Positions 13,991-62,650 of a stretch of DNA of 64,000 nt are shown one piece after another. Source of the DNA: Octopus vulgaris (Eukaryota); assembly GCA_951406725.2 (NCBI GenBank), contig OX597821.1, positions 6,820,001 to 6,884,000 of the forward strand. Direction: 5' to 3'. Under the pieces are notes generated by a model. That model was not told the origin of the DNA. It saw only the letters and a program-made list of their open reading frames with translations, and searched no databases. A program made the position numbers and the translations under genes. Numbering within the stretch: position 1 is the first letter of the stretch; each line of letters begins with the position of its first letter.

Positions 13991-14308
13991 TTTCGGTCAA
14001 TCAATCAATGATCTAAGTTTGTCAAAGTCCGTTCGTCGCCGTTCGCGACATCACCAACGACATGCTCTCTTTGCTCCGGATCTGCTTCCTATACACACAA
14101 TTAGTTCCATACAATGAATTGCTAAGAATGCACAATATGCTTCGCTCTTAGTTGTAAGAGCGAAACAAATTGCACCCTTATGCACTCGTAGCAATCGAGT
14201 GCGTTTTGTATTATTATACCCTGCAAACATTGCGTTTAGTTTTGTAATATGTGCAATTTGAGTTGATGTTATACGTGGGCCGGAATAACAAGCCAATTGT
14301 TACATGTA

Positions 14309-15593
14309 CGAGGGGCGTTCAATAAGTAATGCCCCTGACCCACTTCCCATAGCAGTAGAGCAACGACACTTGGCACAGTTATTAGTCTTTTTCTACATAG
14401 GAACCACCCAGAGTTACGCATTTCTCCCATCGTTTGATACAGCTCTGGAGACCGTTTTTGTAGAAGAACCCAGCTTGGTCCTCCAACCTCAACGTGACTT
14501 CAGAAATCAAGGCTGCATCATCTGGGAAACGCTTTCCTTTCAAAAACAACTTCATGATTGGGAAGAGGTGAAAATCAGAGGGTGCAAGGTCAGGAAAGTA
14601 GGGGGGATGGGGAGGAGTTCATAGCCATACGCCTGTACTTCTGATCTGGCGACAAGCGAGTTGTGGACCGGAGCGTTGTCCTGCAGGAGGATGCCTTTGC
14701 TGATCTTGCCCCGCCTCTTGATTTTGATAGCTTCTCTTAATTTCCTCAAAAGTGAAGCATAATAGGCTCCTGTAATTGTGGCACCCTTTGCCAGGAAATC
14801 TGTCTTCACTACTCCGTCCTGGTCCCAGAAGACTGTGAGCATGACCTTGCCAGCGGAGGGCTGCACCCTTGCCTTCTTTGGAGGGTGAGTCACGGTGCTT
14901 CCACTGCATTGACTGGGCTTTGGTCTCTGGATCATCGTGATGGACCCAGGTTTCATCCTGTGTAATCAGTCTTTTGAAAAATTTTGACTCATCTTCTTGG
15001 CACATCTCCAAATTCACCCTCGAGCACTCGACGCGTTCTTGCTTCTGGAAAGGTGTGAGCAACCTGGGAATCCATCTGGCAGACACCTTATGCATATGCA
15101 AATGGTCATGAATGATAGTTTCCACAGACCCGGTACTAATCTTGACCTCATGGGCTATTTGGCGAATAGTTATGCGTCGATCTTCCAAAATGGCAGCCTC
15201 AACTTGACGGACAGATGCCTCATCAATGGCAGAAGGGGCCTCCAGATCTGGGAGCTGTTTCCACAGAGTTCCGACCATGTTTGAATTCACGATGCCAGCG
15301 TTTTACAAGGTCATATGATGGGGCATCATCACCATATGTTACTTTCATTTCATCAAAAGTCTCCCGTGGTGTGCGTCCTTTCAAATACAACAACCGGATC
15401 ACTGCTCGACACTCAACAGGCTCCATTTCACACTTGACTCGGTTCAAACACCTGTAAATCAGAAACCACAATTAATTCAGAGCTGTAATTTGCCACTTAC
15501 TCTATAGAGATATAAATGATTGCACATGCAAAATTTCAGCTAGATCAAACAACTGCAAGTGGGTCAGAGGCATTACTTATTGAACGTCCCTCG
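14309..15593 (-). mobile_element. full-length mariner (Tc1/mariner, DD34D) transposon
   Basis: 37-bp TIRs at 14309-14345 and 15557-15593 with 2 mismatches; TA duplication on both sides; 1285 bp. Confidence 0.97.
14382..15426 (-). pseudogene. mariner transposase, three frameshifts as assembled
   Basis: MEPVECRAVIRLLYLKG..., WIPRLL, ITQDETWV, LQDNAPVH, HPPYFPDLAPSDFHLFP, RWEKCV..GGSYVEKD*, spread over ORFs 15223-15471, 14619-15290 and 14552-14956. Confidence 0.92.
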
Positions 15594-16636: not shown

Positions 16637-16767
16637 CACTAGTGCTTGGAAGGGATGTGTGTAGCGTATGATCATCGCATTGACCATGACAAAGTCGAGC
16701 AGAGAATCTGCATCAATTTTTGCCAAAAGCTTGGCGATAACTGCTCAGGGGCCTACACAAAGTTTTC
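16637..16767 (+). mobile_element. mariner 5' fragment
   Basis: EQRICINFCQKLGDNCSGAYTKF, a mariner N-terminal HTH; inverted homolog of 17100-17200. Confidence 0.75.
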
Positions 16768-16789
16768 ATTGTTTTCAACACAAACAAGA

Positions 16790-17348
16790 TCTTATGCAAC
16801 TGAAACCCGAGTGTCGTTTTGGTCAGCCTAAGCAGTTTTGACACAATCTTGGCAGACACGCGTCTCATACCCAAATCTTCAGTGGTAATGGGCTGAACTG
16901 AACCGTAACTAATATGCATATCCTCTGATAACTCATGGATAGGGATTTGATGATTTCCCCTGACAGCGGCACGGATATCTGCGATGTTTTTGTCAATTCT
17001 GTTGGTTGCAGGCCTCCCAGAACGTTCATCAATATCGAAATTTTTTCGGCCATCTTGAAAACGTCTGAACTATTCATACACTCCTCTCCATACACTTTCT
17101 GAAACTTTGCGTAGGCCTCTGAGCAGGTATCACCATGACAGCTTTCTCTGTCATGGTCAATGCGACGATCACACGCTACACACCTTCCTTCCAAGCACTG
17201 CTGTTAACAGCGGAAGTGGGCTAGGACATTAAAACTTATTGCATATGCACAGCAGAGTTCAAGATCAATCTTTGCTACGCGGCTTTACTCTGCATGCTTT
17301 AGCTTCGTTACTATGGCAACAGTCCGAATACAAATTGATCACACTTCG
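16790..17348 (-). mobile_element. decayed mariner, 5' half with TIR
   Basis: TIR-like tacgaagtgtgatcaatttgtattcgg at 17350; AYAKFQKVYGEECM, DERSGRP, ISYGSVQ...EDLGMRRVSAK. Confidence 0.85.
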
Positions 17349-29035: not shown

Positions 29036-29792
29036 AAGACGCTGCTTTAAAAAATTAAATAGATATTGGGACCTGTCTATTTGACTAAATCCCTTCAAGG
29101 GCCGTGCCCCACCACGGCTGCAATCGAATGACCGAACCGAATAAAAGAAACAATTAATAAAAATCTACTATAATAATACTTTAGTGTTTTTCTCCATCAC
29201 AGCATATGAATGAGAAAGGAAGGGGTGATGGATGAATAAGGAAGGAAGGGGTGATGGCAAACTGGTAATGAGAGCGTTTCGACTCTGTGTGAGTAAATGT
29301 GTGTGTATGTAAAAGGGAGGTATGTGAATGTTTGCGCGCGTCTGTGTGTGTACAATGGACGTGGGATGGTGAACGTTCAACACTGAAAAGGAAGATCAAA
29401 CAGCGTTTCAACTCTGTGTGAGTATATGTGTGTACATGTGTGCGTTTACGAGGGAAGCATGTGTATGTTTGTATGTGTGAACCAGCGTTCTTTCAGTAAC
29501 AAACGATGATCGATGTCACATCTCAAAAGACAACCACTAGATAACACTGACAAGTGTATTAATTTGATTTACCATCCATATTTTGTCCGTTGTGTTACAA
29601 ATAATTATTACAATCACACTCCTACACAAATGTATACACATACAAACTTATTAGAGAAAATAATTATTGTCTGGGGGTTTCAAAAATATAAAACGTCTGC
29701 AGTTGGAAGGGGTATTATAAATTTGGTAATAAAAGAATTCTTATATGTTTGCAAGGGATAGTTATACATCTCCAACTAGCAGGTCATGCTAC

Positions 29793-29835
29793 TCCAGACT
29801 GATGACGAGGGAAGACTCAGAAACTAGTCTCTGGA
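29793..29835 (+). ncRNA. type I hammerhead ribozyme, canonical core
   Basis: tccaga CTGATGA c-gag-ggaaga-ctc-a GAAA ctag TC tctgga: perfect 6-bp stem I, palindromic ACTAGT stem III, GUC site. Confidence 0.8.
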
Positions 29836-30129
29836 TGGAGGCTTAGCTGGGTGGGGTGCTTATCTCCCCCTTGCAAACATAAGGACACAGGAAATGTGTC
29901 AAGGCCGCCAGGAAGCGGTGCTGCTTACCAGGGTTAAATATCAGTAGTATTATTCCCTTTATGGGACTGTCACATTAAGTTGACAGTAGACAACTACTTT
30001 ATCGTACCACTACTGCATAAATCTCTCTGAGATATTTAAAAATGTATTATTTCTATAATAAAAGAATTATTAAACTAAAAACTTGGTTTTGTCCCTTATT
30101 TGTATATAAAATACCACAATTAGTCGTCA

Positions 30130-30985
30130 TTTTTGACAGTACGGAATCAGCTTGTAAATAAACATCCACTGAGTTTCCGGTAGTAACTTGAGTAACAATA
30201 TATGCAGTGCCACTACGGTACCAACAAGAATTCTTGTAAAAAGCTGTGTGTTTCTGTTGCACTCGTCAGTAAAGATCAGTGAAGTGACAGCGCGAAAACT
30301 AATCATCGTTGTGATACCATTGTGACCTTTAAAATTCGTCTCAGTGACACGGATGAAATGCTTTGTCAGCGTCAACTGTGGAACAAAAGTGAATATTCAG
30401 AGAAATCATAGTAGTAACAGCAGGAACTTTAGTGAAGATCTATGTCTTATCTTGTTACTTATATTAAACATGGGCTGTGGGAATTTTATTTACCATTACT
30501 CTGATACTGCAATGATCTTTAGAAAATCGTTTCTGTTGTATGACCGAGAAGCACAAACTTGTGCGATTCCGGGAACATCTGCAATACTGTAACCGTATGT
30601 ATCTTCGTGGATATATTATATTGTATGATCCAATGATAAGCTGCATTCTAGAACGGGTGGATAACGAACTCAATTTCGGCGGGACTCTGATCATTTTTGA
30701 TCCATCTAAAGTTTTCCACTGGTTCAACCATAGTTTCTTGGTGTTTGTCCAATCAGTTTTAATTTGATTCCGGAATATACAAAATGGTTACTTTTCAAAA
30801 TCTTTTCAAATCACACGATTGGTCCTATCCAGAAGGGGGAATCCTCTCCCATTTATTCTTTATGTTCTGACTCACGAAGCATTTCTACAGAAATGTTCAG
30901 TCGTTTTGTTGGTACACATAAGTGGCAGCATTCTTTAAGTGGGGAGTAACCAAATTTGATGGTGTTAGGTAAGTGAATGACGACT
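30130..30985 (-). pseudogene. possible decayed C-type-lectin/PAN-like coding remnant
   Basis: Minus-strand peptides SPFWIG, WLNQWKTLDGS, ESHKFV, then NFKGHN...SLIFTDECNRNTQ..FYKNSCW, broken by stops and frameshifts; motif-level resemblance only. Confidence 0.25.
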
Positions 30986-43676: not shown

Positions 43677-43725
43677 GTCTCTGATGAAGGGATATTTAAA
43701 ATATACCCGGAAACAGCTGTAAGAC
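43677..43725 (+). ncRNA. type I hammerhead ribozyme, canonical core
   Basis: gtct CTGATGA a-gggatattt-a-aaatataccc-g GAAA cagctg TA agac; palindromic ACAGCTGT stem III; element ends in a microsatellite at about 43795. Confidence 0.8.
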
Positions 43726-61169: not shown

Positions 61170-62650
61170 AGTACCTGATGTACAAATGGTACTGGGACGC
61201 AGATAAACATCTATCTGTAAAAACCAATGCAGACTCTGTGGAATCAAGAGACAATGTGGCCCATATTTGCCCATATCATAAGAAGCAACTGTTCGAAAAT
61301 ATCAAGGATATTATGTACCTATGTTCGAGGGGGTACCCAAAAGTAACCAGAAACGTTCTCTGTGGGACAAGCCTAGTGTAGTTCAGGATTCCGCTGCTAG
61401 AATCCACTTGATGCAATCCTCAGGCATCAGTCTGCCGACCGGCGTTGTCGACTGAAGTCGTATTTCCACCTGATGCGTCTTTCTTTTGCAGTGCTTCTCC
61501 TCTGTTCGTCGATTTTTTGCGATGGCTAAAGCGAAGGAACAGCGTGCTTCTGTGAAATTCTGTTTTGTACTGGGGAAAACAGTGGTCGCAACAGTTGTCA
61601 TGCTTCAAGCAGCTTACAAGGAAGCTGACATCAGCAAAACACAAGCTTACGAGCCGTTTTCACGCTTTAAGAACAGACACTTGTCACTTGAAGACCAATC
61701 TCGTTCAGGGCGGCTGTTGACCTCTCGAAGGAATAAAAGCCTAAAAATTCATGAACTGATCTTGGAGGACAGCCGCCAAACAATTGACGAACTTGTTGAT
61801 ATGACTGGTGTTTCCTGGACCTCCTGCCAATGAATTTTGACCGAGGAATTGTGAATGAAAAAAGTTGCAGTAAAATTTATGCCTCGCTTGCTCACAGAAG
61901 ATCAAAAGCAGTTACAACTGAATGCCTGTCATGAACTGAAAGAACAGTTGGAAGTTGATTCGGAACTTTTTACGAAGGTCATCACTGGTGATGAAAGCTG
62001 GTGTTACGGAATTTTCAGCTGTTGAAGAGATGAAGAAAACAACGGAAGCGTTAAAAGGTATCACTTCGTAAGAGTTCCAGAACTGCTTCGAATAGTGGAA
62101 AACGCGTCTGGACAGATGCATTGCTTCAAATGGAGAATACTTTGAAGGCGATAAAAATGTAAACCTGTAAAACTAAGTGGATGAAATGATATTGCAAAAT
62201 GCACAAAGCAATTTGTAGTATGCATAGTCCCGAAGATGAAATACAGGGAGCGGCAGAAATACATCCCACATTTTAAACTTTCATCTATGTGTTGTTAATG
62301 AACTTATGCAAGTGCCAATGATGTTTTCATTTAGCTAATGAACAAAAACTGTAACCCTTTGTTTAAGCATCAGTAAAATTAATTTTTCATAAATGGAGTT
62401 TCTTTTCCTTTTGTCAATCTTTCAAATATGGTAGGTATTTCTGCCCCATCGTGTATAAGAAATTACAGAGACGTAAAAAGTATACAAATACGAAGCAATA
62501 CAATTTGGAATACTGCTTCCAAAATATTTGTTAGATGGAAATACAATAAACCAGATATCGTGATCTGGGATAGTGAAAACAAATTGCATGTAAGAAGGGA
62601 GATCTTTTGTCCAGTAAACATTAACATAATATCAAAGATCTTATAATAAT
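61170..62650 (+). mobile_element. decayed R4/Dong-type non-LTR retrotransposon C-terminus, interrupted by a mariner
   Basis: CRLCG...VAHI-CP zinc-knuckle remnant at 61228-61273; IWN......YNKPDIVIWDSENK.....EIFCPVNINI restriction-like endonuclease motif at 62500-62640. The element may extend upstream towards 60300. Confidence 0.65.
61326..62160 (+). mobile_element. internally deleted mariner pseudogene
   Basis: TIR-like cgagggggtacccaaaagtaacc; MAKAKEQRASVKFCF..., KFMPRLLTEDQK, VITGDESWCYG, then a jump to RLDRCIASNGEYFEGD; stop codons present. Confidence 0.88.

Follow-up and report, generated by a model that had tools for sequence, protein, structure and literature searches.

Non-LTR retrozymes were defined by Cervera and de la Pena (2020), whose account includes mussel units of 350-390 bp and the axolotl families Rtz_331 and Rtz_353 (PMC7229834). 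One of the axolotl hammerheads described there has a palindromic stem III of 1 bp and one has U.U at the base of helix II; both are reported to cleave better as dimers (PMC7229834). In earlier work, Cervera and de la Pena (2014) described canonical and minimal hammerhead layouts and proposed circular templates for the tandems of Penelope-like elements (PLEs; PMC4209133). PLE insertions, according to Craig et al., show 5' truncation, partial tandems, inverted 5' copies and a bias toward microsatellites (PMC8557442), and a 2020 review states that metazoan retrozymes show no motif pointing to a helper (PMC7761336). In a recent preprint, Li, Clavereau and Pollet link vertebrate retrozymes to the pseudo-LTRs (pLTRs) of PLEs and count solo monomers; eight of nine predicted Xenopus retrozyme dimers were uncleaved in vitro, and one was cleaved (bioRxiv 10.64898/2026.07.22.740005). 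The sampling given in the text of that preprint comprises vertebrates, three insects and one coral, and names no mollusc.

The window analyzed here is a stretch of 64,000 nucleotides from Octopus vulgaris (GCA_951406725.2, contig OX597821.1, positions 6,820,001 to 6,884,000), and all coordinates below are those of the window unless a unit position (u) is given. It contains a hammerhead that belongs to a solo copy, shortened at its 5' end and flanked by a target-site duplication (TSD), of a hammerhead repeat of ~352 bp that is scattered through the genome. On the reading that we favor and consider fairly probable, this repeat is a non-autonomous non-LTR retrozyme that probably depends for its mobilisation on the RT/GIY-YIG protein encoded by a PLE. 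Judged from its sequences, the family is best read as a new one among the non-LTR retrozymes.

The hammerhead and its rod

The window copy lies on the + strand, is bounded by homology at 29734 and 30057 (u28-u352), and is 93% identical to the consensus of its subfamily. A TSD scan, with inspection of the sequence, places it between the two halves of a 13-bp TSD, TAATAAAAGAATT, at 29727..29739 and 30056..30068 (both +); the last 6 nt of the left half double as the first bases at which the element matches, i.e., a 5' microhomology. Further along the same strand is a small hairpin, CTGTCA/CATTAAGT/TGACAG (29967..29986), in which one pair shows a compensatory change in the old subfamily, with the loop preserved. 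About 12 nt downstream of it is the first of two insertion 3'-end hot spots of the family (29993..30002, +; u288-296), which the window copy did not use; its own end is at the second (30050..30057, +; about u343-u9).

A type I hammerhead at 29793..29835 (+), recognized from the sequence, from a descriptor scan of the window and by comparison of copies, sits at the apex of a rod of ~140 nt. The rod hairpin (29744..29881, +) is intrinsic to the unit and covaries between subfamilies. The coordinates in the original prediction proved correct when checked against the sequence, as did its 14-bp closing helix (29744-29757/29868-29881) and its perfect stem I, which is 6 bp long (TCCAGA/TCTGGA). The predicted rod was also recovered by folding: the 145 nt of 29740-29884 form a single rod of -56.6 kcal/mol (z -4.49), and 0 of 200 shuffles were as stable. 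Within the hammerhead, all on the + strand, the core CTGATGA occupies 29799-29805, the stem II region 29806-29819 and GAAA 29820-29823; stem III, ACTAGT, is palindromic and only 1-2 bp long, and the cut is predicted after C29829 (GTC). With such a stem III, the hammerhead is likely dimer-dependent. A TAC bulge after stem I (29790..29792, +) is the predicted tertiary partner of loop 2; we take the two to make the usual type I tertiary contact, with a geometry assumed from the Schistosoma hammerhead.

The description of this motif as canonical with an intact core holds for the core nucleotides, all of which are present, but not for what surrounds them. Besides the short stem III, the order after CTGATGA is C-GAG-loop-CTC-A-GAAA, and the pair beside the core is thus C.A rather than G10.1-C11.1. 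Loop 2 is altered to GGAAGA, versus CAAAGA in 11 of 15 sampled copies of the subfamily, and Rfam gave no match for the window at the gathering score, with nothing relevant, and no hammerhead, at E<=5. For three family loci, Rfam returned microsatellite noise alone and no hammerhead family.

Whether the rod is a property of the family was judged from its copies. In 44 close copies, 92.8% of rod cells pair and two pairs covary, and the outer stem was therefore rejected as an inverted second copy. A MITE with 14-bp terminal inverted repeats was likewise rejected, because the element continues for 176 nt beyond the helix and shows a TSD, truncation and tandem pieces. Over 50 copies from three subfamilies, 72 cells were changed on both sides of a pair; shuffles gave 37 such cells, and slid controls 4-15. 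The doubly changed cells cluster in five pairs: the outer helix and stem II contribute two each, and the fifth adjoins the bulge. The number of doubly changed pairs, seven, does not beat the shuffles (458/500 were as high), and because the copies are related, the 72 cells correspond to about five events inherited by many copies. The TAC bulge is retained in 42 of the 50 copies, and loop 2 is mostly CAA(A/T/C)(G/T)A. The basal pair of stem II is C.A (9/15) or U-A (6/15) in the young subfamily, U.U (5/9) or A-U (3/9) in the middle one, and A-U (24/26) in the old one; G10.1-C11.1 beside the core is absent from all three subfamilies in these 50 copies, whereas a constant G-C lies one step outward in 47 of them. 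Because the rod and stem II were kept through compensatory changes in three subfamilies, the structure was likely under selection in the source lineage.

The window also holds a second, unrelated hammerhead (43677-43725, +) of the minimal pLTR type, with a long helix II, a palindromic ACAGCTGT and a GTA cut; it precedes a (TA)n tract by about 75 nt and is probably a solo Penelope pLTR. A decayed reading frame at 30540-30780 (+) presumably resembles a LINE reverse-transcriptase segment, and broken transposase fragments at 14289-15302, 16713-17203 and 61474-61833 are, we assume, mariner/Tc1-like.

A dispersed repeat of about 352 bp

The count of genomic copies that had been proposed as a check yielded 1666 search candidates in the 2.8-Gb genome, and the hairpin is thus not specific to this locus. 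Forty candidates were scored; all except the window are 89-93% identical over the query, and they are spread over many contigs. With the 3' half as query, 2413 candidates were found. The exact 31-nt core pattern occurs 77 times versus 0 for a control pattern. When the core was relaxed and stem III kept, the count was 863 versus 6 for the control; other families are included in that figure.

Other copies have 27 further bases upstream of the point at which the window copy begins and then run into their own 3' end; the unit defined in this way is head-to-tail and ~352 bp long. The unit is non-coding, with a longest stop-free frame of 52 aa, and contains neither an A nor a B box of a Pol III promoter. 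A T4 run at u293 of the computed consensus was discarded as an artefact, real copies having T3 or TCT. There are three subfamilies (young, middle and old), the older one being about 76% alike. As a circular monomer, the unit has a predicted fold of -135 kcal/mol in the young subfamily and -121 in the old. The expectation of a retrozyme- or viroid-like structured RNA was thus borne out in part: the hairpin belongs to a hammerhead repeat and its rod is conserved and covarying, but the rod makes up just ~40% of the unit, and instead of a viroid-like rod the predicted monomer has a branched fold. Family sequence is present in contigs of 4/4 runs that are presumed to be RNA; such contigs show neither strand, ends nor circles.

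Several further copies deserve mention in their own right. The same truncated insert with the same flanks was found five times (L036, L037, L043, L044 and L051; contig C29, 24.35-24.59 Mb), which suggests segmental duplication of one insertion. Truncated copies at L121, L122, L124, L128 and L133 lie in AATAAAGAA-like tails of other repeats, tails that resemble the target site in the window. Several other hammerhead families, at L134-L137 and in the relaxed-core list, have the GAAACTAGTC stem III in common with this one but lack the unit; at L134, two inverted copies are separated by 1.6 kb.

Insert ends, template and helper

Insert ends were read at 83 distinct loci, 90 having been screened and 7 duplicates dropped; the five loci with shared flanks entered separately, and L171 was dropped from the old-subfamily set before counting. 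TSDs of 8-13 bp are also present at L003, L006, L032, L036 and L046, with no LTR arrangement. The 3' ends fall largely into two zones, 32 at u288-296 and 40 at u343-u9, in a tally biased by the queries; these zones also hold the ends of 19 of 25 loci for which the core was the sole selection criterion, and of 27 of 29 old-subfamily loci, whose query forced ends beyond ~u275. Both sites are distant from the cut (about 170 and 230 nt downstream), and no sequence likeness was found between them. Most 3' ends run into (TA)n or (TC)n, and the remark that the motif is not inside (TA)n therefore applies to the window copy alone. Eleven of the 83 inserts have 5' ends near the unit junction (u342-u7).

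Inserts longer than one unit occur at 18 of the 83 loci and an adjacent inverted piece at 37, but only one locus (L070) carries two hammerheads, head-to-tail and 350 bp apart, and no long tandem array was seen among the 83. Non-consensus bases are shared within a locus at 0.016 (tandem) and 0.013 (inverted) per site, versus 0.0036 between loci, i.e., ~4x. The family thus displays 5' truncation, partial tandems, inverted 5' pieces and microsatellite bias, all features of Penelope-type insertion. Only L082 among the 83 stops at the hammerhead cut site, and in a targeted set of seven cores without the following T, six continue as point variants and L082 again is the one that stops; ends at the cut site were thus set aside as evidence of cleavage. 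At L082 itself (1416-1541; G000:C3:116938256), the cut site is where a 60-nt insert and its inverted counterpart both end, and 10 nt of flank are duplicated in inverted form; the insert is possibly a copy of cleaved RNA.

Candidate partners are abundant: elements with RT and GIY-YIG domains, assigned by Pfam, number 6136 candidates in the genome, and many combine the cysteine motif of the Neptune type with a minimal hammerhead that precedes a (TA)n end. The 3' regions of PLEs sampled at 30 + 44 loci have no sequence in common with the unit, the sole match, in the set of 44, being the family locus L019 itself, and tblastn detected no RT-EN ORF leading into the unit in 90, 20 and 29 family loci. 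PLE fragments beside L013, L014, L019, L063, L075 and L124 were rejected as partners because they inserted separately, are misplaced or wrongly oriented, or belong to much younger families. With neither a shared tail nor an ORF into the unit, we infer a Penelope helper from the insertion style and the shared targets.

Some of these elements are of interest by themselves. At L095-L120, 3' of GIY-YIG ORFs, Neptune-type minimal hammerheads carry a U3-A8 core swap (TTGATAA...GAAACATGT(A/T)); U3-A8 covariation was reported for Schistosoma PLEs (PMC4209133). Two very young PLE families, L178-L207 and L208-L222, comprise 9651 and 16588 candidates, with 98-100% protein identity over 150 scored copies each, open frames of >1200 aa, and many inverted pairs a few kb apart. 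A PDB sequence search with a Neptune-type ORF gave no match.

These observations can be assembled into a putative cycle. A source locus with more than one unit would be transcribed, and two hammerheads in the transcript would pair via the palindromic stem III and cut after GUC to give a monomer. A host ligase may then close the monomer into a highly paired circle, by analogy with the axolotl and mussel retrozymes (PMC7229834). A Penelope endonuclease would nick AT-rich or microsatellite DNA, and the nicked end could anneal to the AT-rich RNA at u288-296 or u343-u9; the end sites are observed, and priming there is the presumed step. From the primed site, the RT would copy backwards, passing the cut site (intact or re-ligated) and then the unit junction and in some cases exceeding one unit, as the shapes of the inserts show, before truncating or inverting, and the window copy would be one such product. 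Several observations count against this retrozyme explanation: two-hammerhead loci are only 1/83, whereas published retrozymes form dimers to long arrays; the family has no link to the sampled PLE tails, no G10.1-C11.1 and no Rfam match; the covariation comes down to about five events; one insert in 83 stops at the cut; and most of the predicted Xenopus dimers mentioned above were uncleaved.

A stronger version of the cycle can be put forward only tentatively: the Penelope enzyme would prime on the closed circle at two fixed, hairpin-flanked AT-rich sites and roll on past the ligated cut and over the unit junction, with the hammerhead working in the absence of G10.1-C11.1, and the family would be a genomic record of circle reinsertion. 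Because the same two end sites are kept in subfamilies 76% alike, they would constitute a cis signal of the kind said to be missing from metazoan retrozymes.

The inserts are accounted for no less well by a linear, uncleaved tandem transcript than by a circle. It could be that the same family and the same helper used a linear transcript longer than one unit, with the hammerhead trimming ends or being weakly active, and that no circles were involved. Nearly all inserts do read through the cut site without a pile-up of ends there (1/83, and 1/7 in the targeted set), the basal pair of stem II is not G-C, and the 5' ends near u342-u7 could mark a transcript start. However, the core, bulge, loop 2 and stems are kept between subfamilies about 76% alike, which implies selection for catalysis, and both the rarity of two-unit source loci and the lack of Pol III boxes in the unit speak against such a transcript; we regard a linear template as rather unlikely.

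It is doubtful, and somewhat more so, that the repeat is a solo pseudo-LTR, the broken-off 3' end of an autonomous PLE outside the sampled loci. Its insertion anatomy is identical to that of PLEs (PMC8557442), type I hammerheads occur in PLE pLTRs (PMC4209133), Xenopus retrozymes are often homologous to pLTRs in the account of Li et al. (bioRxiv 10.64898/2026.07.22.740005), and few PLE candidates were inspected (30 of 6136, 29 of 9651 and 15 of 16588). Yet copies that extend upstream continue into the 3' end of the unit itself, not into an RT-EN ORF in any of the three tblastn sets, and in the Neptune-type pLTRs that were sampled, the hammerheads differ in sequence and belong to the minimal U3-A8 type.

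Relative to the consensus of its subfamily, the window copy has 20 differences, among them changes in loop 2 (29810-29811), in the stem beside the bulge and at 29838, and it holds a single hammerhead. As one hammerhead with altered loop-2 bases would not release a monomer by itself, the copy is probably a dead, inert solo copy. The suggestion of a retained pLTR that processes a host transcript did not survive, this being one of many copies, with those 20 differences, and no autonomous PLE with the unit as its pLTR having been found. A TATA-like, AT-rich motif is indeed present at 29713..29722 (+), but it lies outside the element, upstream of the TSD, and TATWAAW occurs 134 times in the window versus 173 expected by chance; a TATA promoter was rejected, the motif being at chance level. 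Exaptation of this locus as a host-used ribozyme or structured RNA driven by that chance-level motif is very unlikely, since, for all that the core nucleotides and the 14-bp helix are intact, 20 substitutions are ordinary within the family, the rod is weaker than those of 32/43 other copies, and loop 2 is altered.

Relation to described elements

Taken by itself, the locus is unremarkable, being one decayed copy among the many of its repeat; what the family adds to the non-LTR retrozymes is probably a cephalopod case. No published description of it was found in the literature on octopus and cephalopod hammerheads, retrozymes and Penelope/Neptune elements, although Repbase, Dfam or supplements may hold one, and the main text of PMC7229834 mentions no cephalopod family. 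Its dispersed inserts retain readable ends, which are hidden in long tandem arrays. The two conserved 3'-end sites and the inserts longer than a unit make the published, unproven model, in which a Penelope RT copies a retrozyme circle, testable with defined constructs, and the changes at the basal pair of stem II amount to a small natural experiment on how much the hammerhead core tolerates.

The family shares with viroids and viroid-like rods its size, a hammerhead and a long stem, but unlike them it is genome-encoded with TSDs, has a type I hammerhead on one strand only (in the window scan), and has a branched predicted monomer. With PLEs of the Neptune and related clades, it shares 5' truncation, partial tandems, adjacent inverted copies, microsatellite targets and a type I hammerhead with a palindromic stem III; it differs in having no ORF in the unit and no homology to the sampled PLE tails. 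The minimal pLTR hammerhead has a helix II of 7-8 bp, with G10.1-C11.1 directly before GAAA, whereas the hammerhead here has canonical 6/4 stems and a conserved bulge and loop; stems of 6/4/1-2 with a palindromic loop correspond to the layout described as canonical metazoan type I in PMC4209133. As in the solo, or monomer, retrozymes of vertebrates described by Li et al., dispersed monomers are accompanied by at least one two-hammerhead tandem in the family and by PLEs in the same genome; pLTR homology, given there for 24/57 Xenopus families, was not found here.

Compared with the metazoan non-LTR retrozymes, the copies here are dispersed and reach at most ~1.7 units rather than forming arrays, the basal position of stem II alternates among A-U, U.U, U-A and C.A from one subfamily to another, and a 140-nt rod extends stem I in a family known from its DNA sequence. 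The mismatch at the base of helix II nevertheless resembles that of HHR_Amex2, and stem III resembles that of HHR_Amex1 (1 bp plus a palindromic tetraloop). In its non-coding unit of ~350 bp (within the 150-450 bp range), its type I hammerhead, its TSDs of more than 4 bp and its highly paired predicted monomer, the octopus repeat is like the metazoan non-LTR retrozymes.
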